Positions 744-52,478 of a DNA stretch of 64,000 nucleotides are shown piece after piece (position 1 is the first letter of the stretch; each line of letters starts with the position of its first letter). The notes beneath the pieces were generated by a model that was not told the origin of the DNA, did not search any database, and worked only from the letters and a program-made list of their open reading frames with translations. Source of the stretch: Phoronis australis (Eukaryota > Animalia > Phoronida). Where the stretch lies: contig NMRA01000921.1 in the NCBI GenBank assembly GCA_002633005.1, positions 1 through 64,000 on the forward strand, given 5' to 3'. Both the position numbers and the translations under genes were made by a program.

Positions 744-906
744 CATAGGCGGATCCATGGGGTAATAAGAGGTCCGGACCCCGATCCCTTTTTCCTCGAT
801 TTTAGTGATATCAAATCCAGAATTTTCAAATTGTTCATTTGGACCCCTTTTTTAAAAAATAATTGATCCGACCCCCCCCCTTTTAAAAAATCCTGGATCT
901 CCTTTG
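744..906. mobile_element. Short hAT-like MITE, degenerate
   Basis: Imperfect termini CATAGGCGGATCCA / TGGATCTCCTTTG with internal GGACCCC/GACCCC motifs; flanks GGACA / GAACA (5 bp, 1 mismatch). Confidence 0.45.
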
Positions 907-1046
907 GAACATATCATTCGAAGTTATTTGAGTCCCAAATATGCAGCTGAATGCGTGGTGACGTCAAGTAATTTGCTCTTCCCGGAAGTATTAATTTATC
1001 GACAAGTCTCTTCGTCTCGTGTGTATAACAGTAAAAATGAATAGAC

Positions 1047-1078
1047 CAATGAGCTATACCAGGAGAGGAGTAGAAACG
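1047..1078 (+). repeat. Left terminal inverted repeat of the P-like element
   Basis: Exact reverse complement of 11614-11645. Confidence 0.95.
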
Positions 1079-1242
1079 ACCACGACCGCCTTTGGTCCCA
1101 TCACTGCCTCGGGTTTAATCCTGCAATTATCTTTGAATTGGTTTTCACAGTTCATTACTATCGGGTCGCCAATCTCCCAGAGGGTCACGTGTATACTATT
1201 GCCCAATCACGCAGCGTTTCCGGTTGTACACAAACCAGGAAA

Positions 1243-2777
1243 ATGGCTGCCGTCGAGTACGAGGATTGTGAAATAGAGAATAATTGTATTGAATTAGATG
1301 AAGAAGTGGACTCTGAACATGAAAATGACGTCGTGTTAGATTTTACAGACTCTCTGGGTGACAGTGATACAGACAATAGCACGGAAGGTGAGTTCAACGA
1401 ATTAGTATGTTGCTATAAAATTTCCACGCCGCATGTCATGTCGGTAAATGCCGGCGAAAATGGCGAGCTAGCAGCTACAGATTATAACGATCAGCGACTG
1501 CATCACGTAGTTACGTTTGCCTTGAATTCTGAGCGCAGTTGCTTGTCTCGCTCTAAATTAGGTACACTTTGTAGTAAATGCTTAGTGACGCACGTTGTTT
1601 TGTAGCTACATTCGTGGTTTAAGCTGAATTTCGAAAACGGCGAATTACAACTAGTTAATGTTATAATTTATTTATTTACCCACTGCATTACATTGTCTGA
1701 AATCTAGGCAAATGACTGTACTTTTAGACTTGATTGTCATATTTTTAATATTAATGTAGTAATTGTTCTATATTTCATACTTTTCCAGAAAACCATCCTG
1801 TCACAATAGACAAGATTTTACTACAAGCGTCACAGCTGCTGCAGAAAGTACTAGATAAAGTAATTAATGACCCCTTGTACCTCAGCAATGCTCGTGGTCA
1901 CGAAGTGCGGAAAGCAGCAGCTGCCTTGAAGCAGGGAGACATCAGCAGTTTTGCGTACTTTATGACAAAAGAGCTGTGGGAAATTTTGGAGTGTTGCAAT
2001 GGTAGTACATTAAGTGGATACAAAAGAATGAAGATGTTCTCAAAGTTTCATGAATTTCGCACGTCCAAAGAGTTGCAGTTAAAGTATAGTGAGTTCTTAG
2101 AAAAAAATAACGTACTGTTGAATGACAATCTGTTACTTCAGGACTTGTGCTCTAAATATTTAGAAACATTGTCTGGTGTGAAGTACAAGAATGCGGAAGA
2201 ACATTCAGAAACGGCTGCTCCTTTAACTGAAGGAGAGGAGATGACTTTGCGTTATGTGGCCGGGTACATCCCTTTCAGTTTGAAGAAACGTTTTTGTCAC
2301 AGTGAGAACGTAGTTCACAGGGAATGTTATAGTGTTTTGGACAGCTGGTCCTCGGAGAGTAGTACAGCAAGCTCATTTTTGGAATACACCACTATTTGGA
2401 CGGACAGGATCAACCGTGGTGGACTCATCAAGGTGAATGATGAAGTTTATGTGTTTTTCAGGAAGATTGAACTTGTCGTTCGGTCAATACTGAACATGAA
2501 GTTTTTTAGCAGAAAAGCTCAAGTTCCTGTTGGACAGACCATTTTAGAGACTATTTTTTCATCTGAAGAAATTCAGCACGCCTGGTGTAACATAGCAAGG
2601 GACATTGAAAGTGAGGTTTTGAGTAAGTTTTTGTTTAAATCTGTTGTCAGAAAGTATGTTGCCATTCGGGGAAGTGCATTTGCTCGAGTATTAAAAAAAA
2701 GAATGGACCACAGCAAGTCAGATAGAGTATCGAGGAAAGGTGAGAAAAGTTTGAGAAAGGAGCTCCGGAATAAGTGA
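1243..2777 (+). CDS. P-element second gene, 2 exons (1243-1387, 1789-2777), 377 aa; acidic N-terminus plus domain resembling the P-transposase C-terminal domain
   Basis: ATG 1243; donor G|GTGAGT at 1388; acceptor TTTTCCAG| at 1788; the phase-1 join (GAA) is in frame with ORF 1875-2777. Motifs LRYVAGYIPFSLKK and WTDRINRGGLIKVNDEVYVFF; AATAAA at 2816 and 2885. Confidence 0.85.
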
Positions 2778-2999
2778 CATAAAGGAACATTACAGATTGT
2801 TAATAAGTAACTATAAATAAATTAGTAGTTGATCAGTACTTGAAATTGTTGTATATATATCGTCATTAATTACTTGATGTTGTAAATAAATTATATATCT
2901 ATCACTACTTGAAATTGATGTGAATGAATCATTAACATTTGTGTATCATAGTCGAACAGACTAAAACGTATACGTCATTTACTTGGTTACATACCCCTT

Positions 3000-3268
3000 C
3001 AGTGTTCTCCACAACCTGTTTTGACCCGTCACTGCATCGAGTTTAAATTTTGCCATGATAAGTTTAATAACCTGAGCAACGAGTTTGAAATATTGGGAGA
3101 TAAGCCATTTCCTAAGCAAGTTATGACATTTTGCACTTTTGGTACTAGTTCAGCGTACTTATTTTAAGACTTACCGTATGAACCCTGCACAGACATCGAC
3201 TGTTAAACACGCGTACATGAATTTTTGAAATTCAAATTGTTTTTGAATTTTTTGTATGGAGAACATTG
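3000..3268. mobile_element. hAT-like MITE nested in the P-element spacer
   Basis: Termini CAGTGTTCTCCA / TGGAGAACATTG; flanks CCCTT / TCCTT; related termini at 19992 and 20578. Confidence 0.5.
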
Positions 3269-3508
3269 TCCTTTAGCGACACAATCCAGTGGGGGATTGC
3301 AGTTAAAAAGCAACGTTATTGGTAATTTATACATGTATTGCTACATACCAAAATCCTGGCTCACAGTACATAAAAATACAATGTTCAAAGACTACCCGTC
3401 TCATCATAAGCTTATGACCCAACCATCAGACAACCCAAGCACCTCTAGTCAAACTTTAACATAAGCGCATGCATTAACCGCCATTAAATTAATCAAGGTG
3501 TCGGTTTA

Positions 3509-3703
3509 TTGTCTGGTCACACTATAGACTACTCTGGTGTTCAGATCTTGGACAAGGATAATGCAATGAGCTATACCAGGTATAGCTCTTTGGATAATGC
3601 CACCCTCAGGCTCCTCATAAAGGAGGCTATGTATATAGGGTTGAATCTTGCTGACTGCTATCTCAATAGAAACATTTGTTCATATGAGCTCCAGCTGTTC
3701 TGA
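3509..3703 (+). pseudogene. Penelope-like GIY-YIG endonuclease C-terminal fragment
   Basis: After removing the 29-bp footprint and one TSD copy it reads GHTIDYSGVQILDKDNATLRLLIKEAMYI...LNRN, the H..d...IL...EA.yI...lNr pattern at the end of PLE endonucleases. Confidence 0.6.
3564..3592. mobile_element. 29-bp P-element excision footprint with 7-bp TSD GATAATG
   Basis: CAATGAGCTATACCAGGTATAGCTCTTTG = fused outer TIR ends (one mismatch); GATAATG at 3557-3563 and 3593-3599. Confidence 0.88.
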
Positions 3704-3777
3704 TTTCTGATTACTTCCCTTTCAATGCATTTTGACGTGTATCTGTACAGTCTGTTTTCCACCAGTGTTACCTGATA

Positions 3778-3806
3778 CAATGAGCTATACCAGGTATAGC
3801 TCATTG
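3778..3806. mobile_element. 29-bp P-element excision footprint with 7-bp TSD CCTGATA
   Basis: CAATGAGCTATACCAGGTATAGCTCATTG; CCTGATA at 3771-3777 and 3807-3813. Confidence 0.9.
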
Positions 3807-4003
3807 CCTGATAGGAATGTGAACGTTTGTCTTAAGAATGGCTTAGTGACGATAAACCAAAATGTCGATTAATACAATGTCGTTTACATATGCGCTGATA
3901 TTAAAGTTTATACTCATATTTTGGTCAAAACAATTGTGATCCTTCTTGTCATCACCTTGTCAAAGTGTACTAAGTACATGTATGCTAATAATATTGGTTT
4001 TCA

Positions 4004-7000
4004 TTATTGTGATGGCCGTGGTCTCTTTGGAATCGGGGTATCATCTACGGTTATGTTTAACCTGCGCCCAGCTCCTCTTTGACAGTTACCCGTAACTGGG
4101 TGAATACTAAATTGTCCAACAACTTGAAAGACTTGTTCATTATTGGTGAATTGTTGAAGTGTTGGGGCAGAATTTGTGCCACATGCTTTCCTATGTTTAG
4201 CAAAATGCTGTTCGATGTTATCTTGGCAGCAAATCCTCTCACTCAGGATGTATTCTACCCCTGGTTCACTCAGAAGTTCCTTACATAAGCCTGGAAACGC
4301 CTTTCCTGAAAAATAAGAAACAGTACATAAAAGAAAAAATGGGAACTGTTTGTTACTTGATGTACTTATGTTCTGGTAAAAATGGACATTGCTAAATTTT
4401 GATTAAAACAATGAAAACGTCTTAATTCTTTTGTTATATAAAGAATAAAAAACCTAACTTCTTTAAAAAAATACATCTCTGCTTGTAGCTCATTCTTACT
4501 CTAGAAAATTGTAAGACAGGAAATTCTACTTCAAGAATAAATTGCTTCTGAACAGTATGAAGTTGCAAGCTTATTGCCTTGTAACTGTTATTCAATAAAG
4601 GATGTCCTATTTTTTTAAATTTTATAACTGAACAGATCAACTAAAGGAAAGCAAGGCATGACATGCCAACAGTAAAACTCGCAGGACTCGATTAAGTCCG
4701 ATCTTCACTTAACTAGGACAAAGCTCGGTAGAACTGCATCTATTTCCTAATAACACCCAACAGATGAATTCACTTTCGCCCCATTCAGACGAATTAAAAA
4801 TTTCCCTGCACCATCGGATCAAACTTAAGTTCTACTGCAACAACAAATACTGATTTACCTGTAATACGCCACCCTTCAAGAGTTTCTCGACTCAAACAGC
4901 ATCTACTTCGTTCATCTTTCGAAAGGTTTGGAATATGACTTATTTCATCTTCCCATTGATTGAGCCACTGTAAGAACTCCTCGATCCACTGCAAAACATG
5001 AATCACGAGAGGAATGCTCAATAAGATGCGACCACCGAAAAAAACAGTATGCACTTCAAAATAGTAACTATTTGACAAAACCAAAATGCAATGTTTTCAT
5101 TTCTCGCATGAAATGGTGTTTTACTTGTCTGTGCATACTGGGTTCACAGAAAGAAACGGTATCATACCCAAATTGTCATTACAATTGTATACATAAACTT
5201 ACTAATGACTAATGAATCACTGAATTAAGATGTAACGGGAATAACTTACTTTAAAGCGGAAGTCATCGACATGTCTGTAGGCATACTTAAAAACTTTGTT
5301 CGAATTCCTCCCTTCGTACAGGCTCCTGACATTTAAGCAGTCAAACATCTTGTCAATCATTCGAACAAACTCTATGCAAGACGTCAGTTGTGGATGACCT
5401 TGCAGCTCCAAAATAAGGGCAACGGTTTCACTTAAAACCTAGAAGATATCAAATTGAAAAACATCTAAAAAACGATTTTCAAGACTAATAAAACTCGCCT
5501 CAGTCGGATCCAACCAGGCTGAGAGATTTTGTCCCAGTTAGGCAAATCCATTTTTTCTCTTGAGCTAACTTTGTAAAGAGAACTGCTCGGGTGCAGCAAA
5601 GATCCAAATCATGGACGTGCGACGTTCAGGAGAGATTACTGAAAATGAACATTGCAAGAACTATATACATGATTTTTTAATAATAGTTTTGGCCATATAA
5701 TAGAAATAAGACATGAGCATGGTCAGGAAACATATTACCGAATACTTTATCATACACAGTACTCTACCTGGGCTGCAAGGTGGACTCTCATTCTTGAATA
5801 AGACCTAAGGTCGATATGGTCTTGAGTAAGTTTATTAAGCAGCATGAAACCAGGAACTGCTGGATTCCGCATCAGGTCACCATAGTACGCATTTGTGAGC
5901 TGTGTCCAGCGAATTGGCTTACCATGAAGCTGCAAAAGTATGTTAATACTAATGAGAAAATCATTTTGCAATAAGGCTGTAATAAAAGCAAGTTTGAACT
6001 TGGACACTTTCGTGTCATCCATGTAACCATGTTCACACATATAAGAACCCGTGTTTTTATCAAAGTTGAATAAAGAACATGTCACGTTAGTGTTCAACAA
6101 TTCAGTTCTTTCTATAAGATGATGAATTTTGACTTTGAGAAAGGTCAATGAGAACAGGTAGCTGTTCCTCCTCATATACCTATTTGACCAGGATGAAAAA
6201 AATTAAAGCAACGACGTTTAGGTGCATTAAAATATTAGTTTTTCACAGAGAGTACTTAAACTATAACATACCACCATATTTCTAGTATTCTTGTTGCCTC
6301 CTGAATTTTCCCAGCAGTTTCGAGTAGTCTTCACCAGATGAGGCGCATCGGCAATGAAGTACAGGTATCTTGTGGTGGGAGCATATATGTTGACTGTCCT
6401 ATAAACAACAGCATTCTGTGCATCTGCTGGTAGCTTGTGCATACGATAAAAACGGCGGTTTGGTGTAGCTCCATCACAAACTGTAGCTCTAACCTTTAAA
6501 CCGTGGGTTTCCAGAGCACGTACACATTCCCACACGACAGGGTAAAGCTGGTCCGAATTAAAACCAACACATGGATAGTGGGCAACGGAAAAACAGTACG
6601 AATCTGTAATACCCTGTGCCATGAACAGCAACACGTGTGTAGCAATCTGAGGCAAGACCTCGCCGCTCTCGATGTTTGCAGCAAACGCAGCCAACTGTTC
6701 ATTAAATGAGCCCGTGTTGCACTGACCGATTACTTTTCCTGTGGCCTTTGAATATACTAGGTCTGCCTTTACTTTCATTTCGTCAAAAATGAGCACAACA
6801 TTTCGTTTGTGCTCAGGCAAAGAGTCAAATTTAATGCTGTTCAATTGCTGTGACAAAAATTTCACATCTACCACCCCATTGTCCAATGACATGTGGTGTT
6901 CATAATCAAACAATGTTCTTGTGGATGGCAAGAACAGAAAGCCTGAATTTTTTATAAAATCGTATGCTGCCTTAGATAGATTTTTTAGCTGTAGGCACCA

Positions 7001-9183
7001 CTTTAACATCATAGGATGCCACTTCATGCTCTTGCTATTTTGAAGTTCCAACATCTTTTTCTGTTCTTTCCACAACAGCATCTGCACAGAGTCTTTTTCA
7101 ACTTTGTCAGTTAGCTGTGCCTCATTTTCAGATAGTATCGTTTTAAGACACTGGTGCACTTCCTCTGATACCTCCACGCCTTCCTCTATAATTGCTTTAC
7201 TTACTCGCTCTGTCAGTCGCTTGTTGTTTCGCTTTTCCATTTTTTCGTTGTGTTTAATGTTTGTGCATCGTTCCTCTAACTCGTCCCTGCTTAAATAGCT
7301 TAAGCCAGTTTTGGAACTGGCTGAGGTGCGTTGCGAACGGTTTTCTTTCGCACTGCGATGTAACTTGTTCCTCAGCACAGCTCTGTACTTAACACAGCTT
7401 GAACACTTGGTTCCATTAATGAGCACAGGACAGTCCTCATGACGAATCGTGCGACTATAAACTTGGCCACTGAAGACTCGAAACAATTTGCACTCCCTAG
7501 CCACAACTTTTCTATTTGTGTCATAAAAAACTGCATCACCCTCCCCTTGACAACACACTTCAAAAAACTTGTCCTCTGGGTTTCCTGGACATACAGTCGC
7601 AAACAATGCAGTTCTGAAGAGAGGCTCACAGGTTTGCAGTAATCTTGGAACCTTCCTCAGGCAGTTGCTGTGAGTGACACTTTTGCCAAGTGCTTCAGCT
7701 TCCCATGAAGTATCGTTATTGACCGTAAACAAATGCGAGAAGATGGGCTGTCTAAAGCTGTTGATTCGCTCAAATGACTGGAGCTTTCCAAATGTGACAG
7801 AATTTTGCGCATCAGAAATTTCGATCAGTCCAAACTGACTAGCTTCCTTGCGAGCTTTAGTAAGAAATGCATCGGTACTAGTAGGCGAAATCAGCTCCTC
7901 CTAAAAAGCACAAAAAACACTATCTGAAGTTGAGTAGTAACATTTGGCACATAATACAAGATTAAAAAGAAGTGTTGCTTATGAAAACTGAAACCAGTTT
8001 CTGAGTGAGGAATCCACGACCGAAAATTTTAGCATACACAATACTTCACCTATACAAGCTTTTCTGAACAAGATAAAATATACTCTACCTCACAATGTTC
8101 ATTTGAAGGTTGCAGTAACTCATGACACTCCACTGCAAGTGTTTTAGAGCCATCTGCTTCTGGTTCATCTCTGACCGCTAGCGCTCCAGACTGACTTTGT
8201 TCAGGTGACAAGAATTCGTCAACCTAAGAAAAAATGTTGAATCAAAAATTTAGGTGGGACAAGCACATATTCAGACTACGTTTACCAAGTATAACTAATT
8301 TAATAAGAAAAATACAGTAGTAGCCGCTTTATAAACCCACATAGCAAGGAATCAGTTGTATTAACCAGCTGGACTTTTACCCAGCAGATATTAATGTTTT
8401 TTACCACATTTTGGCTTAAGTGATTGAATGGACTTTTTAACTACAGATTTATAAAGTGACGGCCACTGTAATAAAACAGAAGTATAACTGACAGCAACGT
8501 GAAACGATCTGAATGAGATCTTTACATCAACATTTTTCTGGTACAACAAGGGCGATTAATTTGACTTGGCAGTATCTTTTGGGTATGGATTTTAGTATTG
8601 TGCCAAGCAAGGATTTTAACTACCTTGGGAATGGGTTTTAAAAAATCACCACCACATTGGGAACCCTGTCGAGGTATTGTGCTTATCTGGATTTGAACTT
8701 CTCAACGACACACCCATTTTGTTTTTTAAAGGGAACATGCCCTGGCATCATTGGAATAGCATGAACTTATACCAATATACCTCATTTCCAGTCTGCGAAG
8801 ATGCATCAGACACATTTTCACTGGCAACCTTTAGCTGCAAGGCACCGTCAGTTTCAGATTCTGTTGATGAATCAGCGCGTGATACCTAAAGAAATATAAC
8901 ATTTAGTTGAGTGATAAATCACTAGCTACAACAGTGAAAATTAATGAAATAATCCAGGAGCACGATTGTGTAATAAAAGGAGAGATATGGTAATTATAAG
9001 CACGAAAGCTAAGTTTTCTTTCAATTGATCAGAAAATGAGTTATACCAGCAGTAGTGCATTGGAAATTACTTCAAGACAAAATATAGCACAATAATTACC
9101 TCAGTCTCGGGTTTCTTTAAAATGTTTCCATTGTCAATGTATGTTCGTTTCTTCCTGTAAGTCAAACCTCTCCGTTTGCCCAT
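4004..9183 (-). CDS. P-element/THAP9-type DDE transposase, 8 coding exons (9183-9100, 8885-8781, 8223-8089, 7900-6272, 5929-5768, 5438-5250, 4988-4859, 4305-4004), 911 aa
   Basis: All introns GT-AG, and the joined frame is open (2736 nt). Motifs KWHPMMLKWCL..S..AY...LPS.RTL, IFDEM (D1), VCDGA (D2), DAPHLVKTTRN, MRVHLAAQVLS, FDCLN, QDNIEQHF (E); ends DDTPIPKRPRPSQ*. The first three short exons are less certain than the catalytic ones. Confidence 0.88.
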
Positions 9184-9439
9184 TCTGAAACAGCAAGCAG
9201 TTGGCAATTAAAGCTTGATACCTTTGAACCTCTTTATGTTATTAGTAAGCAAAAGACATTCATTCAATGAAAACAGATACAAGTAAAACCTTATATTATT
9301 TAAAAGTAATACAAAAGTTTAACACTAATAGCAATGTGCGGGAGTAAATTTGAATATTTTTGAGCCACTACACATATAGGGTAAGACATTCCGCATGACA
9401 CGCATAATGTTTTTGCAATGTCAATATTACTGCTTTCTT

Positions 9440-10950
9440 GGTGAACTAAGAATAAAAAAGCACAAACTTGCTGGGAAAATTCTGGAGGTATTACATAAAC
9501 CATGAAGGACGCGACCAGAGGAACAGATGTGGAGACTACTTAGTTCGGAGCCAGCCCACTAGACTACATGTATTCTATACAAACCAATCTTAATTCAATC
9601 ACTTTTATTGCATACCAGGTGAGCCAAGGATCATAAAAAGCACAAACATGAAGGGATTTCTTACTCTGGGAAAATTCTGGAGGTATTAAATATACCATGA
9701 AGGACCCGACCACTGGAGCGGATGTTGGGAATTATTTAGTTCAGAGCCAGCCTACAAGAGACGCAGCATAGACTATTCTATATGCAGCAATCTTAATGCA
9801 ATCACTTTTAGTGCATTCCTAGTGAGCCAAGGATCATAAAAAGCACAAACATGAAGGGCTGTCTTACTCTGGGAAAATTCTGGAGGTATTAAATATACCA
9901 TGAAGGACCCGACCACAGGAGCGGATGTTGGGAATTATTTAGTTCGGAGCCAGCCTACAAGAGACCCAGCATAGTCCATTCTATATACAGCAATCTTAAT
10001 GCAATCACTTTTAGTGCATTCCTAGTGAGCCAAGGATCATAAAAAGCACAAACATGAAGGGCTGTCTTACTCTGGGAAAATTCTGGAGGTATTAAATATA
10101 CCATGAAGGACCCGACCACAGGAGCGGATTTTGAGAATTATTTAGTTCAGAGCCAGCCTACAAGAGACCAACCATAGTCTATTCTATATACAGCAATCTT
10201 AATGCAATCACTTTTAGTGCATTCCTAGTGAGCCAAGGATCATAAAAAGCACAAACATGAAGGGCTGTCTTACTCTGGGAAAATTCTGGAGGTATTAAAT
10301 ATACCATGAAGGACCCGACCACAGGAGCGGATGTTGAGAATTATTTAGTTCAGAGCCAGCCTACAAGAGACCAACCATAGTCTAGTCTATATGCAGCAAT
10401 CTTAATGCAATCACTTTAAGTGCATTCCTAGTGAACCAAGGATCACAAAAAGCACAAATATGCTGTTTTTTTTTACTTTGGGAAAAATCTGGAGGTATTA
10501 AACATACCAGGAAGGACGTGATGAGAGGAATGGATATGGAAACAATTTAGTTCAGAACCAGTGTACTAGATACCCAACATAGTCCATTCTATACTCACCA
10601 ATCTTAACCTTTAGTATATTCCTGGTGAAGCAAGGATCCCAAAAAACAGTAACATATTGGGTTTCCTTACTTGGGGAAAATTCTGGAGGTATTAAATGCA
10701 TCAAGGACACAACGAGAGGAACCGATGCTGACACTGGTCAGCTGGGAACCAGCCTACCAGAGACCCAAAATAGTGTTTTATGTACTCAAGGACCTTAATG
10801 TAATTACTTTAATTGCACTCCTGATGAGCCGAGGATCACAAAAAGCACAAATGTTTTGGTCTTTCTTCCTTGGGGAAAAAATCTGGAGGTTAGACATAGA
10901 AGGAACGACGCGAAGAGAGGAAATGAGAATATTTAGTTCTGAACCACAGG
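9440..10950. repeat. Tandem array of about 203-bp units (about 8 copies) inside the P element, upstream of the transposase ATG
   Basis: Anchor GGGAAAA(T/A)TCTGGAGGT recurs at about 9473, 9668, 9871, 10074, 10277, 10480, 10674 and 10873; central copies nearly identical, edge copies diverged. Confidence 0.9.
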
Positions 10951-11519
10951 CAGTCTAGGTAGAATCAGCAAAGGCCACATACAAACAGGCATTTTAACGC
11001 AACATACCACTTCCAGTGCAGTATTCCTAGTTTACTGTTTAAAAAAGTATACTTATGCCAAAAACTTTGCTCCTTCTCAGCAAAACGAATATAGTTGAAA
11101 ATTCGTGTGCCATGTCAAAATGGCAGCAAAGTGGTGTAGTCGGAGAACCACTCACCATATGCTAACTTTTTCTACCCTTCATTTGTTCAACCTACTTTTA
11201 ATTCAAGTAACAGGATTAAATCAATCTTAACATTAACAACCACGAATAACAGTCAAACACGAGTAAGCCTAAGCGTGTTCACTAAGACATTACCTCAATC
11301 ACGACGGCTGAATTCTACAGATTTTGATAAAAAGAGGAAAAATCTCACCTTCTTAATCACTTCGAAGCAACGCAGGACATTGACGATCTTTCGCACTTGG
11401 TGCAAGTTGACTGACTTCAAATAAATCGAGAATCTTCAATCGTCTTGAAATATCAACTTTCTAATCGATCACACAATAAAACAAAATGGCTTCCACGCTT
11501 ACTTTCTACGATTGTCGTC

Positions 11520-11592
11520 AAGCACGTGACCGTAACAGAGTGCGAACATCAAAGGACACCGAATTCAATAGAGCAGCGCGCTGTGATTGGCC
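11520..11592 (-). promoter_or_regulatory. Putative transposase promoter elements (CCAAT box, E-box)
   Basis: ATTGG at 11586-11590 (CCAAT on minus) and CACGTG at 11523-11528 just inside the right TIR, mirrored by CACGTG 1186 and CCAAT 1203 inside the left TIR. Confidence 0.35.
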
Positions 11593-11613
11593 AGTTTTGC
11601 TGGCTATTGAAAC

Positions 11614-11645
11614 CGTTTCTACTCCTCTCCTGGTATAGCTCATTG
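11614..11645 (-). repeat. Right terminal inverted repeat of the P-like element
   Basis: CGTTTCTACTCCTCTCCTGGTATAGCTCATTG, exact reverse complement of 1047-1078. Confidence 0.95.
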
Positions 11646-14302
11646 GCTTGAATTTTCAGCAGGGATAGATTCGTCATGAATGCTATCACAAATGCCTTTT
11701 TGTGGAAAGTGAAATGGCATTCATATTTTAGGTTTGTGAATATTGAGTGACATAATGTACTTGATGAAAGCCAGAGACACTTCAGAGGTTACGAGGCAAC
11801 AAGTTGAGTTGAAAACACCGGAACAAATATGGCGTACACAGCATCTCAAGGTTGGGTCGAACAAACATGGATGAAAACACTAGCGATCATCCCATATGAA
11901 CCCTATGGAACACCTCCGATTGCTGTAATGCAGATTAGTCTGGAGTAGAATGTGTTTAGAACGTCCACTAGTATGGTAATAACTGGATATAACCTCNNNN
12001 NNNNNNNNNNNNNNNNNNNNNNNNNNNNNNNNNNNNNNNNNNNNNNNNNNNNNNNNNNNNNNNNNNNNNNNNNNNNNNNNNNNNNNNNNNNNNNNNNNNN
12101 NNNNNNNNNNNNNNNNNNNNNNNNNNNNNNNNNNNNNNNNNNNNNNNNNNNNNNNNNNNNNNNNNNNNNNNNNNNAGTGTATTGTTAAAATAGGTATTTC
12201 GGGTCTTCAGTTGTCTCACTGGTTCAGCTATATAATTTCTAGCTGCTGTTCACGTTACCACAGAAAGCTTGCCATTGCTATAAACTGTGTGTCAGTTTGA
12301 GCCATATCCCTCAAATTGTTTATTCAATGCAACTCTTGGAAAGTAGTCCCATCCAGTCAGTTGTGGTTTTCAGTATGGGTCTGATGTGTCTGTCAGCAAT
12401 TAGCCTGGTGTTTATTGTAGTTAGATATTGTTTATGATAAGGGCTTGAAAATTCTGAGACCAGGCGAACTTTTGTCATGCCACAGATTCCTGTAAGTTTG
12501 GTTTCAGCATTTTGAGCTTAGTGCGTGGAGCACGTTTCACTGAGAAATAGTTCAGCTGGAGTTTTGTCAGTGACAGAATGTGGCGTGTTGCGATATGAGA
12601 ACAACAAGTTTGATAAGCGGTGCGACAATGGCAAGCGTGCATCAGATTTGTCTAACATGTCTTTGAAAATCTGCACATAACGTTTCGCCTGTCCATTAGC
12701 ACGATGATAAATGGGACTGAACGTGTGCTTGACACCATTCAAGCGTAGAAATGTCTCAAATTCTGCAGATCGAAACTGGACCATTATCTGACACATAAGC
12801 TCATGGGGCAAGCCGTAAGACGCGAACAGTTAACGAAATTTCACAATGGTGTGAGTTGAAGTCGTTCCCAACATGGGAAACACCTCCAACCACTTCGAGT
12901 GGCTATCCACAACAATCAGATAATCCTTGCACCCTTTTCAGCATAATCAATGTGTACTCGTTGCCAGGGCCTGGTTGCCCATGGCCACGGAATCTGGGCG
13001 AAGGTTTTGGCATGTTACGAAATCGAGCACAATAACCACACAAACGCACTAAATCCTCAGTAACAAAGTGAATCGAGTAAGTCTCCACTTTAGACGCAGT
13101 TTCTGACTGATCCACGGGAAGACGACTCAATGCATCAGCATTTGCATTCAGATGTGATCGCTTGTGCTCAAAATTGTAACCGGATAACACCAATGCCCAG
13201 CGCTGTAAACGAGTAGCTCCGATCGTTGGAATTCCTGCCTTAGGCCCAAAAATGCGAGTAAGCGACTCGTGGTACAGTCACAAGAGTGAACATACTGTAC
13301 GACCAAATAAATATAAGTGAAAATGCTTCACACCAAAAATCAGAGCAAGTCCCTCTTTAATCTGCACTTGTGCATAGTTCTTTTCTGCAGAACTAAGTGT
13401 CCGTGAAGCGAATGCAATCGGTTTATCCAAACCATCAGGCATCTTGTGGCTTAAAACCGCTCCCACGCCATAGGAACTAGCATCACAGCTTAATTAGGAC
13501 AAGCGGTCTTCTAGGATCGTAGTGCACTAACTCATGATCACTTAACAGCTGGCGCTTACATTCAACGAACGACTTCTCGCAGGCATCACGCCAATGCCAT
13601 ATTCGACATCCCATGCAGCAGTGCATACAAAGGGTGTAACAGAGTAGACAAATTACGAATGAACTTGCCATAATAGTTCACCATTCCGAGAAGCGATTTT
13701 AGTTAATCCACAATTTTAGGTGGAGGAACCTGTGAGATAGCCGCTACTTTGTCGGCTAAGGGTCACACGCTATCCACCGACAAGGAGTGTCCGAGAAACT
13801 GGATCTCCGACATAGCAAATTTACACTTTGATCTGTTCAGCTTTATGTTATATTTGCTGAAACGTGCAAACACGAGTTCGAGAGTGCGAAGATGTTGCTC
13901 TAGGGAATGGCCTATCACCAAAATGTCATCGATGAAACATATAACGTTATCAATACCGGACAAAATTTTATCCATTGTAGCCTGGAAAATGGATGGTGCC
14001 ATTTTACTCCAACTGTTAGACGGCGTGGTCGCAACAAATACTTGTGAGTGTTCAAGGTGAGTAAGTCCAAAGAATGGTCATCTAATCGCAACTGATTAAA
14101 TGCACCCACCAAATCAAGCGAAGAGAACACACATGGCGTATTATCACCACGTGCCAGCTTGGCAAACAAGTCTTGAGTATTAGGTAACAGATATTTGTCA
14201 TCCTCTGAGTGTTCAATAATTTGTAGTTGCCACAGACGCAAATAGTGGGACCAAAGAACTTCACTTTCCTGACGTTCACAGTGGGCGACGCCCAGTTACT
14301 AT

Positions 14303-16249
14303 CCCGGGTGAGAATTTTACACGTTTGACACGCTTTTGAGCGTGTCAAACGTGTCAGACGTGTAAAAAAACGTGTAATACGTGTCAAAATTGCCACGTCA
14401 ACGTGTAAAACGTGTAAAAACATGACACGCTAGCGTGTCAAACGTGTAAAATTTGCCACGTTAGCGTGTCAAACGTGTAAAATTTGCCACGTTAGCGTGT
14501 CAAACGTTTAAAATTTGCCACGTTAACGTGTCAAACATGTAAAATTTGCCACGTTAGCGTGTCAAACGTGTAAAATTTGCCACGTTAGCGTGTCAAACGT
14601 GTAAAATTTGACACGCTAGCGTGTCAAACGTGTAAAATTTGCCACGTTAACGTGTCAAACGTGTAAAATGTGACACGCTACGGTGCCAAACGTGTAAAAT
14701 GTGACACGCTACGGTGTCAAACGTGTAAAATTTTGACACGCTAGCGTGTCGAACGTGTAAAATATGATAGAACTCTTCAATAAAGATACAATTTAAATAG
14801 GCTTGGCAGTTCTGAAAAGGCCACTGGGAGGTAATCACCCAATTTGAATGATTAAACATGTTCCCTCAATAACATCAAAGAGTTTGCAACAAAAGTTTTC
14901 ACTGCCTATTGAAATATCCAAACATTGAGTTAGAGTTGGTTTAGCTGTCAGAGAGTGCAGTCCTCTCAGGAGAGCACTTATGAAGTATGGTTTTCGAGTG
15001 TGGTGCAGCTCTAACAGAAGTTTAGTATGTATATACTCTGGTTGACAGTGGCTTGATAAACTTTTCTTGCAAATGGTCCTTCTTTTTACAGGTAAGTTTG
15101 ATTGTAACAGAAAACAAGAGTCAGTAGAAACTGTTGACTACGCAGTTAATATATGAAGTTGGAACGCCTCTCATCTTCAGTAGTATATCAATTCATAATA
15201 TTGTTGTTATTGGATCAACTCACATTTTGTGTCAGCTTGAATGAGGATAAGACATTGTGTTTAGAGGTTTGGGCTGCAAAATCAACATGAACTCAATGTT
15301 ATGACAAATGTTGAATCACTCTTGGTAATTCAAAGATGTTACAAAGTGCGTCTGTTCTTTACTTCATAAACTGTTTTCAAGCAACTGGCCTGACTCAAAA
15401 GCTTAGACTTATATGCATATATATAGCAGCTTAAGCACTTCAAATTTGTATGTTGAACCATTTTCTTATTTCTGTGTTAATGTTATTCTAGATGAAATGA
15501 AATTTAGTGACAACAGTATGTGGTAAGAGTTGGATAGTTACATTATCCTTTTAATGATTCTATATCATTATCACATTTTGGATTATTTACATCAACAGTA
15601 ACAATAAACTGTGACTTAAAGAAGAAATCCCTTTATACATTTGCTTTCAGTATGGATTCCCATGGTGGATGGTGAGCTGCTATAAACAAGAACATTATGG
15701 CTTGTACACGGCCTCAGGCTAAATGTAGGGTCGCTACCATGGCAATGACACAGATTACAGGCTAGCGTGTCAAAAGCGCCACGTTTGACACGCTAGGGTG
15801 TCAAAAGTGCCACGTTTTTGCCACGTTTTGGCAAGCTACATTCGACACGCTATCGCCACGTTTGACACGCTAGCGTGTCAAAAGTGCCACGTTTTTGCCA
15901 CGTTTTGGCACGCCACGTTCGACACGCTATCGCCACGTTTTACACGCTTATCGCCACGTTCGACACGCTAGCGTGTCAAAAGTGCCACGTTTTTGCCACG
16001 TTTTGGCACGCCACGTTCGACACGCTATCGCCACGTTTTACACGCTTATCGCCACGTTTGACACGCTAAGCGTGTCAAACGTGGAGTATTGGAACGAAAA
16101 TTACACGTTTTTGACACGTTCTTGACACGTTTGACACGCTACATTTTACACGTTTGACACGCCACGTTTTACACGTTCGACACGTTTTTAGAGCGTTCCA
16201 ATACTCCACGTTTTTAGAGCGTGTCAAACGTGTCAAATTCTCACCCGGG
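14303..16249. mobile_element. Non-autonomous CACTA/EnSpm-like element (CCCGGG termini, 2-bp TSD AT), copy 1
   Basis: TIR CCCGGGTGAGAATTT; subterminal arrays of about 31-bp GTGTCAAACGTGTAAAATTTGCCACGTTAGC units; AT duplicated at 14301-2 and 16250-1; removal restores the Gypsy RT frame VEHSNWASP. Confidence 0.85.
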
Positions 16250-21681: not shown

Positions 21682-23843
21682 CTGAAAAAGGAAAAAAGCA
21701 AAAACTTACACATTTAACTATACAAAGTATGACTTGCCAGTCCATTGACCCCTGGCTACTGTGTCTCAACTGCAGGACAACAAAAGATTTGACACAAAAC
21801 TGTCACTTTTGTTAGTTTTGTAAAAAGATTTAACTACTGTGTTGTTGTCGGCCATTACATGAGTTTTGGTTCAAAGCTGAGCACTTCTTTTTAGAGACAA
21901 TGATATCTAGAAATTGACTTTTCACATTGCAAAATTTTTAGACAGGCTGGTTTTTGTGATCGCCGCAAATTCAAATATAGTTTCTGAAACTAGAAAAATT
22001 AGCCACTCAGATGAAATGGGCACCATTAAGGTTATCTCCAACCTTATTTAGTGGCCTCTATTCTAACTCGTATATCAAAAAAACTAAGCTTTGTCAGCTN
22101 AGTTATATAACATGTTGCACTGTAAAGGTGGGTGACAATCTGCCACAGATGCAGCAGAAGGATGCATCCGCCCACCCTTTAGAGACAATGATATCTAGAA
22201 ATTGACTTTTCACATTGCAAAATTTTTAGACAGGCTGGTTTTTGTGATCGCCGCAAATTCAAATATAGTTTCTGAAACTAGAAAAATTAGCCACTCAGAT
22301 GAAATGGGCACTATTAAGGTTATCTCCAACCTTATTTAGTGGCCTCTATTCTAACTCGTATATCAAAAAAACTAAGCTTTGTCAGCTAGTAAAAGTACAT
22401 ATTTTCTGAAAGAAAAAAGATTAGGGAATATGAAAATACTTTTTGAATTAATGTACCATTATCCTTTTTACACAAAAAACCTATTGCCCAAGCCAAGAAA
22501 AAGCCGAATAAACTGGGACAAATGAAAATTTCACAGTCTCCGGTTAATTATTCGGTGAAAACTTGTTTTTGGTACACATATTCTATACAAGACTTAAATA
22601 TGTTCGCTATTTCAACATTCACTCGCAATGTCAACTGATTTTGCAGTGCGTAATTAACTTCATTATCATTAAAACGTATAGTTACCAGCAAACTCTTACT
22701 GTTGTTTGCGACCTTTTGGCCTACCTTTATGTAAATAGGTCACAGTCATGTCCTGAACACATCCACTAAAACAAGAAACTGTAGGAACACTGCATTTATC
22801 CAACTTCACTCTTATCAGGCTTCTATTGTGAGTCAGCATGTGTGAATAATTGGCTGATAAGCCACCTCTTGGAACTACTTTTGGCTGAATGGATGACCAG
22901 GCAATAAAATGATAATTAGCCAAGACCAGTTACTATAATGCAACAAAGAATAATGTCTTGCATCACCTAGCCTTGGTGGAAAATGGTATACTGTATTGGC
23001 TCAAACAAACGCTTAGAAAAATTCATTTCACGGGGAGGGGACGCTTATTGTAGTGAGCCTACGGCAGTTGAATCCCGGTTTCCCAAACGGGTAAAATCGG
23101 AAGCTAGGATTCACCAAATTTACGCTTTGTGACGTATTTGTAGCCTATGACAGCCTTTCTAAAAAATTGTGGTGCATTGCTATCAACTTCCATTGTTAAA
23201 TTACGATAATTTTTCAAAAAATTGGGCTCATCACAGGGCGAAAACTTGTCGACTGATGCGTCGCTGAATTGCGATCGTCAATAGGAAAACTTGTACTCTT
23301 GAATAAAAATATAGTTTCGACTCAACAAATTACCTGAAATCTTCCTGATGTTTTACAATTTTTAAAGTTCCTGTGGAGTCCAGATTAATTGCGATTAAGT
23401 CCAAATGTGCGCTACATCGTACTCCACAACACGAGAAAAATCTCTGGATGAACACACATGTTGTTGTCACGTGACGTTTGTTTTGAAGGTCGTCTGCGTA
23501 TGAGAGTGAGTGAGCGTGCGTGTGCGGGTCATCGACGATAGACTTTTTTGTTACAAAAGGCGGAGGATTATGCAAGTAAATGGCGTTTACTAGATTGTTT
23601 TTCACTTGAACGGCTGTAACGTGCAAGGTGAGTGCTGGTTAACTCACAGATTTTGTGTGCACAGGCCGACTGTCGTTAGTTCTGCCGTGGAGTATTAATA
23701 GTCCAAGGCTCGATCTACATGTTGGGGACGAAATGAACTACCCGGGCTGTGTGAAATTTCTGGGTCTAACGGAGACACTGACGCAGTGCAGGTCAGTCAG
23801 ATCGCTGTATCAAGACTATAGTCAAAATCCAAATTCGTTTTAT

Positions 23844-28575: not shown

Positions 28576-31500
28576 CAGTGGCGGATCTACGGGGGGGATC
28601 AGGGTGTTTATACCCCCCTCACTCAGTGGGCCAGGACCCACAAAAAGTAAAAGACAAAGACGTCTCCAGGAAAACAAGAACGACAGCGCCAGCGTGTGTA
28701 AACCCCAAGTAAACCAACTTGGAAAAAATTGAGAGGAGGGGGGGTTCACTCTGAAAATGTGAATTTTTTGCATTGCGACTGCTGTTATGAAAATCAACGC
28801 ATTTCAAGTCTTCGTGGCTCATCCAGCAAAACGGCGCTTCCTTCGACAATTCCAGTGAACTGAGTAGCCAAGCATTTAAGATGACTCCACCGCTCAGCTG
28901 AAAGAGCAGCCCTATAGCTGACTTCTTTAGGGAACTAGCTTCTTTACTCAAAGATATGTTTTGATTTAATCAGGGAAATAGTGTGCCGGGTGCCGCAACC
29001 CTGATAACGAAGGCGAATCTACTAAAGTTGACGTGCAGCGTTTTTACCTCATCTGTCATGCCGTGTCATTCCATTGTACCTCACACATTTGTAACTCGAA
29101 TTTGACTGGTTTATAGTAAAGTTGTCTTGCGCAATATCATACAGTGTACATGTATTTTTTTAAAAGAACTCGTTTTCCGAAGAATTGCTATTGTCGCGGC
29201 GGCGCACGGTGGCCTGGTCGCGAGTCCGTTTGAAGATGCACTCTAACAAGCTACGTCTATACAAAGAATGACCAAGGGGGCACTCACATTGACAAAGTGA
29301 CCACATTCGCGAACAGTGTAGAGTACCAGAAATAGCGGGGAGGCTGTATTTTCACAGCACTGAAAGTCTTGCGGGACTCGTGCGATGTTCAATAGGCCTC
29401 CTAAGGAGCTCTAGTTCTGACCGTCAACACCTACCGTCTTTCTACCTGCAATAAGCACCAGTGCCGTCTATACTGGAAATTTCCACAAAAAGGCCCACCT
29501 GATGAAACGCTCATGCCCATGAGCATTTATTTGATGTTAGTACTTGGAGTTTAAGCGTTCAGACATTGGGACTTTTATTCAGAAAACTGCAAGATATGCA
29601 AATAGGTCCTAGGATATATCGTCTAGGTTTGAAGTAGTTCAAGATGAACGGATCAAAATTAGTTGCGCATGTACGTCTTTTGCCCGAATGGACTTGGCAA
29701 CCTCAGGGGGCTTAGTGCCAATTGACATATCGCCAGGATTTTGAGTGACGGCTTATCTGACCGTTTAGAAAGCAGCATTATTGACACACCTTTGTTTCCA
29801 AACCGCCATTTTACCCGACAAACAAAACGTTGCGGGGTAAAACTTATTGCTTGTTAGTCGACATTACGCAAGGGGCGGACCCCTGCGAAATGTACCTCAG
29901 TTAACCATGGTTAACCATGCTTAACCATGGCTGTACAACCATGGTTGACCATGGTTNGATTCTGGTTTGTATTTCCACTTGGCTCTATCTGCTTCATAAC
30001 CAAAATCTATTTCACGTAGTGCGTATTTAATTTGTACTCAATACTTGTTTCTTCCACTAGTTAGTACTAGAGAACGGTGCAAAAACCCTTCCAAGACAAC
30101 CTCTCGCAGCAGTTGACGAGCAGATGTATAAAATACACGTATGAGCAACCACTGGGCATTAAAAAGTGTCTAGAGAGAAGTTTTCAATTCAAAATGTTTT
30201 GCATAGTACGCTTTAGGTCTCGCGACGGACCAGTCCAGCTTGATTTGTGTAGATATTCAGTTTCAGTGTACATGTGGTCCCTCGGTGAACTAGTCTTGTG
30301 ATGTTTTTTATCTAACTGTGCTTTTTAAAACTATTTGTCTCAGCCAGTAGGCCTAATGTTTGGTCCCGCCGCGACAGATCGACTATTTTTATAGGGATAA
30401 TAAGCACGGGTGCACTTTTGGTCTCGTAACGGACCAGGCCAGCCTTTTTGTGTATTCTCAGTGTACATCTGCATGGTCGCTCTGCGAACTCAGTGGTCCT
30501 GTATATCTTTTTACCACCATGAATATGTTTTGGTTTCGTGAAACTGTTTTCAGATGATTTGTTTCCTGACACATTTGTCGTTTTTCAATTGTTGTCAACA
30601 TGATTCAGCTTAATAAAGTGATACCAGGAAGAGATCTCTTCCTGGTGATACTTAATTGTTTATTGTCGCATTTTTCAATAGACTATGAGCTGAGAGCACC
30701 ATCGTTCGCCACTTGTTCTCGTAACGAGACAAAACACATGTTTATTTCCGGACTAACAGAACAGGTCTTCGTTCTTAAACAACTTGAGGGTGCTGTTACG
30801 CGATCATGTGATATTCCATTTTTACGCCCCGTCGGTGCTCCTTATGCTCTTGAATATTTGGTAGTTGTCTAAACCCCACACTTTTTCGTATACGACTTTT
30901 CGTATGCTAAAAAAGGTGTGTGCAAGCAGATGTTCTAACAAAATTTTTGGCTGGTGACGTGACTCATACCCAGATGTGCACAAATATGGTTTCGTGAAAC
31001 TCATGAGCCTCGTTCATGTGAAGAAATCGAGAAGGGTTTTAAATTATCTTAAGAAAAACTCAAGAGACATGTTAAGTGCCAGAAACTTACCAGGATGCAT
31101 AAAATTTCAGTATTTGGCTACAAAAACAAAACATTGTCTTACACCGGAGGGAGGAAACCCCCTCCCGACCTCCCCCCTCTCGGCGCAACGCGCCTCGGAT
31201 TCGACCTTTGCGGGAATCCTAAACCCCCCTTACTGAATACGTAGATCCGCCACTGCAGGATCCATGAAGACGAAGTGCATGCCAAGTGGCGAATTTAAGT
31301 GGAAAAGAAATCTTTGTGTCCGACGTTGAATCAACTCTGTTTTAAAACCCCTTTGTTACAATTATTCTTAACATATTACAATTACGCCGATTTCTGTTAA
31401 CTAGCGGTGCCCGTAACCTCAGCATAAAACTCGTCGGCAAATATTTTTTAAATCTAGCGAAGAAATCGAAAATTGGGCGATTTTTGAAAATCATAATATT

Positions 31501-33011
31501 CCCAGTTCGTTTTCGGAAAGCTATGGTGCCATAGTGTNGATAGGCTAACGTTCCTGGAGAAACACGTATTAAGTTATAATTCTACACACATGGTTTGTAC
31601 ATAATGTCGGTTTGATATGCTTGTGTACAATGAAAACGAAATAGAAATTATTTTTCATGTGGTCATGCCAAATTTACCCAATACTGTAGAGGGTCTTCGA
31701 GCACACACAAACTGATTCTGGTTTGTATTTCCACTTGGCTCTATCTGCTTCATAACCAAAATCTATTTCACGTAGTGCGTATTTAATTTGTACTCAATAC
31801 TTGTTTCTTCCACTAGTTAGTACTAGAGAACGGTGCGAAAACCCTTCCAAGACAACCTCTCGCAGCAGTTGACGAGCAGATGTATAAAATACACGTATGA
31901 GCAACCACTGGGCATTAAAATGTGTCTAGAGAGAAGTTTTCAATTCAAAGTTTTTTGCATAGTACGCTTTAGGTCTCGCGACGGACCAGTCCAGCTTGAT
32001 TTGTGTAGATATTCAGTTTCAGTGTACATGTGGTCCCTCGGTGAACTAGTCTTGTGATGTTTTTTATCAAACTGTGCTTTTTAAAACTATTTGTCTCAGC
32101 CAGTAGGCCTAATGTTTGGTCCCGCCGCGACAGATCGACTACTTTTATAGGGATAATAAGCACGGGTGCACTTTTGGTCTCGTAACGGACCAGGCCAGCC
32201 TTTTTGTGTTTTCTCAGTGTACATCTGCATGGTCGCTCTGCAAACTCAGTGGTCCTGTATATCTTTTCACCACCATGAACATGTTTTGGTTTCGTGAAAC
32301 TGTTTTCAGATGATTTGTTTCCTGACACATTTGTCATTTTTCAATTGTTGTCAACATGATTCAGCTAAATAAAGTGATACCACGAAGAGATCTCTTCCTG
32401 GTGATACTTAATTGTTTATTGTCGCTTTTTTCAATAGACTATGAGCTGAGAGCACCATCGTTCGCCACTTGTTCTCGTAACGAGACAAAACACATGTTTA
32501 TTTCCGGACTAACAGAACATGTCTTCGTTCTTAAACAACTTGAGGGTGCTGTTACGCGATCATGTAATATTCCATTTTTACGCCCCGTCGGTGCTCCTTA
32601 TGCTCTTGAATATTTGGTAGTTGTCTAAACCCCACACTTTTTCGTATACGACTTTTCGTATGCTAAAAAAGGTGTGTGCAAGCAGATGTTCTAACAAAAT
32701 TTTTGGCTGGTGACGTGACTCATACCCAGATGTGCACAAATATGGTTTCGTGAAACTCATGAGCCTCGTTCATGTGAAGAAATCGAGAAGGGTTTTAAAT
32801 TATCTTAAGAAAAACTCAAGAGACATGTTAAGTGCCAGAAACTTACCAGGATGCATAAAATTTCAGTATTTGGCTACAAAAACAAAACATTGTCTTACAC
32901 CGGAGGGAGGAAACCCCCTCCCGACCTCCCCCCTCTCGGCGCAACGCGCCTCGGATTCGACCTTTGCGGGAATCCTAAACCCCCCTTACTGAATACGTAG
33001 ATCCGCCACTG
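28576..33011. mobile_element. Non-autonomous hAT-like element, 16-bp TIR, 5-bp TSD CAGGA
   Basis: CAGTGGCGGATCTACG at 28576; CGTAGATCCGCCACTG ending at 33011 (also at 31255 in the duplicated segment); CAGGA on both sides. Confidence 0.75.
29900..29956. repeat. AACCATGGTT 10-bp palindromic tandem repeat running into an assembly join
   Basis: About five imperfect units ending at n29957. Confidence 0.6.
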
Positions 33012-50605: not shown

Positions 50606-52396
50606 TAAACCAAATTTGAGGGTAACTAACAGGAAAGTTAGTAAAAAGGTGAAAAGGTCAACCTTGAGACAGAAATTAAAACCGTGTTTCTGTTTCTGCT
50701 TCTGTTTCTGTGCTGACGTCAGAGGGTAGGCACCGGGATAGTCTCTGGTACTCCTCCTTGCAGTATCGCACGCACTATAAATTTGGAGATGCTGTGCCTG
50801 TACTAAAATTTCTGGTCTCATCTAACATGCCATTCTAACCAGGTGTCCTATAACTTTCAATTTTTTGGCTAAATGGACAAATGACCCTAAAAATTAGCTC
50901 GATTTTCATGTGTGTTGCTAATTCTTGTCATAAAAATGCTAATTATGGGTATTTCACTATACTATCAAATTTGTGCAATCACATGGACCCCAAACTTTAT
51001 AAAAATAACATCTCAACTTTGGCACATAATTGACCTCACTAGGTCAAAGGTCATCTCCTGGATATCATGGTGCCGTATGCCGTCCACTACAAAAGTGTTA
51101 AATAGTTAAGTTAATGTTAAGTTTTCAATCACAATTAAATTATTAATTCCTGATTCTTATTTAACTAGTTACGCAATATAGACCAAAATTTTAGATCCTA
51201 GGAATTATTTGTTCAGTCAGAAATTGCGTGACAGACGTACAGCGAATTTGTACGTTCGTCACCTCCGTCCATCACAGCCAAGAAATTACAATATTTCAGC
51301 CAATAAAAATAAACTTCGGTCATATTTTACTTTCAAACCTTGCAGAAGATAAACTGTTACAGTTGTTGACCACTTGTATCATTAGGAGGTGACACCAACA
51401 AGAAAACAATACATTACAGAAAGGGTCAATATATATGGCCACATCAGGCTACATTTGAATTTTCACAATTCTAATTCCAAAAGCAAGTTTTCAGTCAGCA
51501 GCTTTTCTGCTGACTTTTCCTAGATTTAGATTGACAACAGATGCTCACCAATGTGTCAAATCTTCCTTTTTGTTCCCTCACAGTTAGGCAGCTGCACAAA
51601 ATAATGTGAAAGTGAAAACAATAAATTTTGTAAACCACGCTGCCTGACCTAACCCTAACCTCCACTTTCACTTTGACATGATTCTCTAAACAGTGTTGAG
51701 CTGGGAACAGATTTTGGGCTTGGCCTGCCAAGCTCTCAGTTGTTTAGTCTTGTGTTTGTAAGCAAGCAGTTCCTGACCTGGCATAATTGGATGATTCTGA
51801 CTGGGCCATGGTTAAGACATTAAATGTATCTTGGTGTAATAAGTTCTCTGTGTATGGGTCTTTTGTTTTAAGTTTAACAGTGGTGTTTTAGGAGATTTAA
51901 TTGAAAGATATCATGAAAATTAGATGGTTGGAAGACTACAATAGTCCATATCTCTATGCCATAAAGAAATCTTGTTGAAGAAACGTAGTGACACAAATAT
52001 ACACATTTCCATGGTGCATGCGGACACAGTGAAATAGGCCTACCCTCCACTATATGAAAAATGACCCCTATAAACTCAACTTGGAAACACCAGCCACTCG
52101 CATGTGGAAATCCTGCTGTTACTTGTCAAAGTAATTATATGCATTTACTAAGGTATTCACAAGTGGTACTTATTCTCTTACTTCACATTTTTTGACGTGA
52201 CAAAACGGTAGGATTGTCATTTTCGAGTTCTTTTATTGGCATTTAATGATTCTTCATTGTTGTTGAAGGTCAGGCCAAAATTTGGGACCCATTCAACCTC
52301 ATGTTTACTGACTTTCTAAAACCGCTCTGAGGTGGTGGCGTATTACAACTATTATTAAAATCTCTTGGTCTATTTACACCGACCTCTAGTCTATAT

Positions 52397-52446: not shown

Positions 52447-52478
52447 TCCCGCGTTCTTAGAAAAACACCACTACACCA

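Follow-up and report, generated by a model that had tools for sequence, protein, structure and literature searches.

Two 29-bp palindromes in a contig of the phoronid Phoronis australis are each made of fused terminal inverted repeat (TIR) ends and each lie between the copies of a 7-bp target site duplication (TSD). The DNA analysed, here called the window, is the first 64,000 nucleotides of contig NMRA01000921.1. We hold with good confidence that the 29-mers are fused-end insertions between 7-bp TSDs and most likely mark healed donor sites, from which a P-superfamily element excised itself, likely with a long stagger of 17–19 nt, the 3' TIR tails left behind being likely joined at a CCWGG motif. 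A long staggered cut is already mapped for the P enzyme of Drosophila, and its persistence and length in distant P lineages is the question addressed here. Scars of fused TIR ends and 7-bp TSDs are already known. What is particular to this case is that parent and scars are found in one locus, that the empty sites provide direct evidence, and that there is a hint that the stagger is not 17 nt. As the scars and empty sites share a locus with a parent whose catalytic exons are open, both a TIR and an enzyme are available there for a direct test of the cut site.

Two probable scars and their empty sites

The first footprint is found at 3564–3592, its palindrome has a single departure, T for A at 3589, and it is flanked on the forward strand by GATAATG at 3557–3563 and again at 3593–3599. 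The second, at 3778–3806, is a perfect palindrome except for its central A and has the form that is most frequent genome-wide; its duplication, CCTGATA, is present on the forward strand at 3771–3777 and 3807–3813. The two near-identical palindromes with exact 7-bp TSDs are therefore present as a preliminary description of this DNA had reported, seven being the sole fully matching duplication length at both sites when lengths 2–12 were tried. The 29-bp pattern matches twice in the window and in none of 100 shuffles, and at the local composition the chance of an exact 7-mer repeat is 9e-5 for one footprint and 8e-9 for both. Short scars of 14 or 20 bp are absent from the window.

The left arm of each footprint is identical to TIR nt 1–17 of the element at 1047–11645, and TIR nt 18–32 and all subterminal sequence are missing from both. 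A 29-mer with T at its centre is the A form read on the other strand. Elements of the hAT type leave hairpin footprints that are palindromes of flanking DNA; this origin is rejected, the inserts being TIR sequence rather than flanking DNA.

Both insertions are in a separate high-copy repeat (about 3513–3930, forward strand, with approximate ends drawn from read and contig depth), which lies between the two genes of the element. The public data comprise five of the eight runs listed, of which X1 and X2 are contigs of one sample, which may be the window's own source, X5 and X6 are RNA reads of two other samples, and the fifth is X7. Summed depth over the repeat is about 760–7,050, against 36–49 on either side. 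Paralogues of the repeat show the sites in their empty state. At the first site the joint runs from 3555 to 3592 and skips exactly 36 bp (29 + 7), this being seen in 10 X1 contigs, 9 X2 contigs, 11 X5 reads and 13 X6 reads. The second site shows its empty form with less precision. In one contig the sequence passes from 3773 to 3818 through 11 intervening letters (a net 33 bp), and the loose ends behind 3776 resemble the sequence that follows the TSD in 10 and 7 contigs and in 34 and 29 reads. Since the paralogues lack the inserts, the empty state is the prevailing one; the evidence is exact for site 1 and approximate for site 2.

The comparison with empty paralogues thus agrees with the proposal of the preliminary description that family members inserted into the host element and left it at least twice. 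Its broader identification of the palindromes as excision footprints of a P-superfamily element is also upheld, as TIR-derived inserts, empty sites and a genome-wide family are all seen. It had overlooked both the separate high-copy target repeat within the element and the division of the transposase between two genes.

Footprint 2 is found with both of its flanks in public contigs (record 6 equals 3631–3804 and record 7 equals 3778–4300, with 0 differences each), from a sample that may be the window's own source. With its own flanks it also occurs in 6 reads of X5 and 8–11 reads of X6, and it is therefore not private to the assembled sample. About 19% of X7 contained 0 reads with the flanks of the window locus, which is no evidence of absence.

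When footprint 1 and one copy of its TSD (36 bp) are removed, an open frame is left in the nested repeat. This frame resembles a Penelope GIY-YIG C-terminus, and a Pfam search with it returned no match. An inverted arm of 76% identity is present at the repeat (3451–3513 and 3848–3909). In X1 and X2 a contig joint from 3803 to 3565, at about five times single-copy depth, reads as most of the palindrome, 12 other letters and the palindrome again. It possibly represents tandem scars or another repeat, and it is absent as a joint when contigs and reads are aligned to 3768–3817. RNA depth extends from 4300 down to about 3350–3430 with first mates on the forward strand, which in most stranded libraries denotes minus-strand RNA; both scars are probably in the 3' UTR of the transposase.

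A parent element with two convergent genes

The host of the scars is a P-superfamily element at 1047–11645, identified by TIR search and Pfam, with two convergent genes. Its TIRs are identical and 32 bp long (1047–1078 on the forward strand, 11614–11645 on the reverse), and nt 13–17 are the quasi-palindrome CCAGG. The element itself has no TSD at its outer ends, the flanking 7-mers (1040–1046 and 11646–11652) matching at 3/7 positions, and the 7-bp TSD assigned to the parent is that of the scars. The missing outer TSD would fit recombination between copies, a hybrid insertion or a mis-join. An N gap begins at 11997, beyond the right end. The body of the element is at single-copy depth in the regions examined, and one paralogue, 86% identical, matches 4134–4240.

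The transposase is encoded on the minus strand at 4004–7900 in five modelled exons (7900–6272, 5929–5768, 5438–5250, 4988–4859 and 4305–4004), the model covering the gene downstream of its 5' exons. The exons have AG/GT junctions, are open for 803 residues and end at a stop 68 residues past the catalytic Glu. The catalytic motifs FDEM, CDG and QDNIE are found in this one open five-exon frame. Pfam matches are to the P-type RNase H, HTH and GTP-binding domains; PF21787 scores above its cut-off (E 4.9e-22), and PF21788, PF21789 and PF12017 score below theirs. The Drosophila P mechanism needs GTP for pairing, cleavage and strand transfer. In P-type transposase the GTP-binding residues are K385, K400, V401, S409, F443, D444, N447 and D528 (PMC7776569). 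The phoronid frame contains, at the sequence level, K...R-V...S with spacings of 15, 1 and 8, then FDxxN and DxxE, with K400 replaced by R. The order of the motifs is as in the available part of PMC7776569, and their spacing is partly so. On these motifs the parent is a P-superfamily element whose catalytic exons are open and whose GTP-site residues appear to be kept. No THAP match was found in the 557-aa exon or in any of the 24 upstream minus-strand frames of at least 40 aa, a search that a THAP domain split among short exons could escape. Comparison of the transposase exons with PDB sequences gave nothing relevant.

The second gene, ORF2, is on the forward strand. Its first exon (1243–1387), modelled from an ATG and a GT donor, encodes an acidic N-terminus. 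Its second exon (1789–2777) encodes, judging from profile and predicted structure, a stand-alone homologue of the P-transposase C-terminal domain. ORF2 has 1,381 relatives at E ≤0.001. A Pfam search with ORF2 itself gave no match, and its profile found nothing relevant among PDB sequences; in an alignment of 107 sequences (ORF2 and 106 of the 150 relatives listed) the Pfam family Tnp_P_element_C matches 14 weakly, with a best E of 0.009. The predicted structure has a pLDDT of 90.5. Residues 143–308 of the model superpose on residues 617–734 of 6P5A_B with 118/118 positions aligned, an rmsd of 2.3 and a Z of 12.1, a value close to the caution line for an all-helical model; the next match has a Z of 6.5. 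Foldseek ranks 6P5A_B third for this model (E 0.36, probability 0.98) and gives no match at E ≤0.001. We retain the identification with the C-terminal domain despite the cautionary Z because the weak Pfam and Foldseek matches agree on the same domain. The model also has an additional N-terminal helical domain (residues 1–139) with no clear match. A Kolobok/KolX identity for ORF2 was considered and rejected, the KolX fold being different (PMC9587614).

The canonical one-gene layout of P and THAP9 is absent: the transposase polypeptide has no C-terminal domain, and the fold of that domain sits in ORF2 on the opposite strand. On the evidence of the ORF2 model, this is a two-gene P element, in which the predicted C-terminal domain is separate from the transposase and encoded by the convergent gene. 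In the fly structure the C-terminal domain contacts looped-out single-stranded transposon DNA (PMC7776569). A literature search, conducted mostly outside subscription journals and Repbase, found neither a split P C-terminal domain nor genome-wide uniform P scars outside Drosophila.

Two further features are seen within the element. A tandem array of about seven ~203-bp units occupies 9400–10950 in its 5' region. At 9034–9049 there is a candidate internal TIR-like site, matching 14 of the first 16 TIR nt, which may be a chance match or an internal binding site.

The genome-wide family and the likely length of the cut

The 29-mer belongs to a family found across the genome. In X1 the summed depth over 3780–3803 forms a flat block of 5,794 on the 29-mer, against 49 on the right flank. 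The X1 contigs aligned to 3768–3817 number 47, of which 39 are at least 99% identical, one is 95–99%, three are 90–95% and four are below 90%. Three estimates place the family at about 37–39 locus-equivalents (37, 38 and 39, with extremes of 22–111), values inferred by treating summed contig depth as shared 31-mers, the depth itself being no copy number. Longer variants of 31, 32, 33, 35 and 35 bp together account for about seven locus-equivalents. Among X1 contigs the 29-mer makes up about 80–85% of the 29–36-bp class; the 80% identity limit probably misses scars shorter than about 28 bp or longer than about 36 bp, so the uniformity applies inside this range only. All three readable longer variants, of 31, 32 and 33 bp, consist of TIR nt 1–19 followed by 12, 13 and 14 nt, respectively, from the opposite end. 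The two 35-bp variants (records 3 and 8) are known by their length alone, and one further contig less than 90% alike is likewise outside the readable set.

Flanks were recovered for three further loci. The 31-mer is flanked by CTTATAG twice (7/7; 9 + 9 reads of X6, the flanks paired by count), one 35-mer by CCTAAAT twice (7/7; record 8 of X1, the left side being the consensus of two contigs), and a 29-mer expressed in X7 by CACCAAC and CACCCAC (6/7; 62 and 65 of 66 reads). These TSDs were read from the consensus of loose ends, left and right being paired by equal read counts or by the match itself. Five loci thereby show the 7-bp TSD proposed earlier from the window, with a mismatch in one case. 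The seven 7-mers have a weak bias, with C at position 1 in 5/7, T at position 3 in 4/7 and A at position 5 in 6/7.

A search of viral contigs with TIR nt 1–17 gave 0 matches. In one metagenome scan all five matches (5/5) are unrelated hairpins in bacterial-looking DNA and none has a TSD. The 31-bp hairpin of these sequences (L001–L005) shares 12-bp arms with the TIR and lies beside a transposase-like frame in bacterial-looking DNA, again with no TSD; it was set aside as a chance likeness.

Dozens of identical, multi-copy, non-coding sequences with TIR and TSD could also represent an ultra-short MITE transposing as a unit, an explanation that we regard as extremely improbable. The HTH of the fly transposase binds the inner half of the TIR (PMC7776569), which the 29-mer does not contain, and cuts staggered by 17 nt from both ends of a 29-mer would be expected to leave no duplex. 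The asymmetric 19+12, 19+13 and 19+14 forms fit the joining of two ends and not the copying of a master. A second alternative is extreme internal deletion: aborted SDSA gap repair, or breakage within an intact element, would have led to a collapse at the two CCWGG motifs, and the 29-mers would then say nothing about the cut. The product would be identical in sequence, and TIR nt 18–19 could likewise have come from templated synthesis of a few bases. This too is improbable: with kilobases of sequence to choose from, repair is unlikely to have settled on an imperfect 5-bp microhomology dozens of times unless the ends were in place beforehand, and fly junctions of a similar type form in the absence of Rad51 (PMC2895639).

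The favoured reading remains that of healed donor sites. During P excision the donor ends keep 3' TIR tails (PMC7776569, PMC2895639, PMC10983969). In the mechanism we propose, excision would leave a single-stranded 3' TIR tail on each donor end, and the two tails would pair antiparallel at CCAGG/CCAGG, forming two G:C pairs on either side of an A:A mismatch. Any flap would then be trimmed and both strands filled and ligated, probably by joining of the polymerase-theta type. The rarer scars would come from unpaired joining, or from slippage that sets the 3' end of one tail against C13 or C14 of its partner. The calculated pairing energy is −3.5 kcal/mol for CCWGG and −4.8 for AGCT, which is the stronger. 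That the CCWGG product is abundant although its register is not the strongest suggests that CCWGG lies near the 3' end of the tail, an argument weakened by the fact that a 14-bp AGCT-joined class falls below the length range of the assay. End-joining is reported to prefer near-terminal microhomologies (PMC5466332). The earlier suggestion that a built-in CCWGG microhomology standardises repair is borne out to the extent that one product dominates; the uniformity itself holds only within the 29–36-bp class.

The preliminary description had also taken the length of 29 bp, as the sum 17+17−5, to show a 17-nt stagger. This does not follow. The length equals 2×15−1 and is set by the centre of CCWGG, and this register yields 29 bp for all tails of 16–23 nt (flaps of 0–6 nt), so the sum proves nothing specific. 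The scars require tails of at least 15 nt on one side and at least 14 nt on the other. In Drosophila, where the tails are 17 nt, the flap-trimmed 30-bp scar was recovered 14 times and the flap-free 32-bp scar 5 times among 68 junctions (PMC2895639), and the modal fly scar thus underestimates the tail. What the modal scar reflects is the microhomology, whereas the cut is better measured by the longest stretch of TIR retained; reading the stagger from the modal scar length is a tempting shortcut that is corrected here.

A tail of exactly 17 nt, as in Drosophila, falls just short of an even chance in our judgement. The longer scars would in that case be 17-nt tails with added nucleotides. Seventeen is the sole length with all four CCWGG pairs and zero flap, and among fly insertion isolates that have the full 17-nt left tail, 4/7 add A or AC first (PMC2895639). 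The two 35-bp variants fit 17+1+17 by length, but fit 19+16 or 18+17 too. The element has also kept, in a separate gene, the counterpart of the fly domain on which the looped-out strand lies. The main difficulty is that the 31-, 32- and 33-bp variants all keep TIR nt 1–19, which filler nucleotides would give with a probability of about 0.005–0.04.

The split transposase may instead cut with a stagger of 18–19 nt, which we consider a serious candidate though one with less than an even chance. The 29-mer would then form after trimming of 1–2-nt flaps, and the 31–33-mers by slipping of G19 onto C13 or C14. Every readable longer variant (3/3) matches TIR nt 18–19, pairing of G19 with C13 or C14 predicts lengths of 31 and 32 bp, and the 14 to 5 excess of flap-trimmed over flap-free products in the fly (PMC2895639) is in keeping with such trimming. 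As a separate protein bears the domain that contacts single-stranded DNA, the geometry could be different in this lineage. On the other side, the variants are three in number and may not be independent; identical letters would result from a non-templated A or from templated gap repair of a few bases ahead of joining; and the predicted 36–40-bp class is mostly beyond the range of the assay. A tail length other than 17–19 nt is unlikely.

More narrowly, it can be proposed that the two-gene P lineage cuts 19 nt into its ends and that the TIR quasi-palindrome funnels about four fifths of repairs into the 29-bp scar. We offer this tentatively, and think it somewhat doubtful. If true, the stagger of a split P transposase would have been measured for the first time, and the scars would form a near-complete map of past donor sites, local self-hops included. 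Uniform scars provide a census of past excisions (about 40 here, with the element body at single-copy depth), and they can pass for ultra-short MITEs.

Known systems and the surroundings of the scars

The scars resemble those of the Drosophila melanogaster P element in that fused TIR ends lie between intact TSDs, with the junction at a short microhomology close to where the long 3' tails end (PMC2895639, PMC5466332). Minority products with insertions are found in both systems, and the transposases share the DDE and GTP-site motifs (PMC2895639, PMC7776569). The two differ in TSD length, which is 8 bp in the fly and 7 bp here, and in uniformity: fly junctions are heterogeneous, the 30-bp form being 14/68 (PMC2895639), whereas here one form dominates its length class. 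Unlike the products of fly experiments, the present scars are natural and were counted across the genome. The fly enzyme has a THAP domain and a fused C-terminal domain, in contrast to the phoronid enzyme, in which no THAP was found and whose C-terminal domain is encoded separately.

Galileo and 1360/Hoppel belong to the P superfamily, whose TIR elements have TSDs of 7–9 bp, and their TSDs are likewise 7 bp long; Galileo prefers GTANTAC as a target, which none of the seven 7-mers here resembles, and the 32-bp TIR of the phoronid element is a further difference from Galileo and 1360 (PMC4168063, PMC3698922). The available portions of these accounts do not use the word footprint. A natural remnant of both ends of a P-related element (27 bp, 12 + 15) has been described for BuT5 in Drosophila mojavensis and was read as an excision footprint (PMC3355041). 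That remnant is one isolated example, located at an inversion breakpoint and flanked by 9-bp TSDs, and, in the available text, is not part of a uniform family of scars (PMC3355041). The zebrafish element Pdre has 8-bp TSDs, and the available main text of its description contains no junction data (PMC10983969).

The presence of two scars in one 10.6-kb element has a chance of about 1e-7 to 1e-5, given 25–115 scars in a genome of 250–500 Mb, an assumed size based on the 503 million letters in the X1 contigs. P elements are reported to hop locally, within about 100 kb (PMC2874221). The clustering of scars is likely due to local hopping, which the two scars 214 bp apart inside the parent would reflect. 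A third scar, older and decayed, is probably present at 61198–61235, where 13 nt of TIR are followed, after 18 nt of other sequence, by 7 nt from the opposite TIR, a pattern seen in 0/300 shuffles; its flanking 7-mers match at 4/7 positions, and it is probably of the same family.

Several other repeats are found in the window. Broken minus-strand frames at 12518–13500 look by eye like the RNase H and integrase of an LTR retrotransposon; Pfam returned no match for two of the frames. Tandem units of 31 bp form two related blocks in the same orientation, 44 kb apart (14334–16111 and 58942–60419). A family of ~141–160-bp units with a higher-order period of about 448 bp makes up several clusters between 39300 and 55000. 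Two near-identical 24-bp palindromes at 30623–30646 and 32379–32402 have a 10-bp left flank in common, and their right flanks are also the same. A MITE-like inverted pair of 122 bp, 93% identical, is present at 52345–52721, and an inverted pair of 161 bp, 79% identical, joins 23067–23227 with 60770–60930, 37.5 kb apart.
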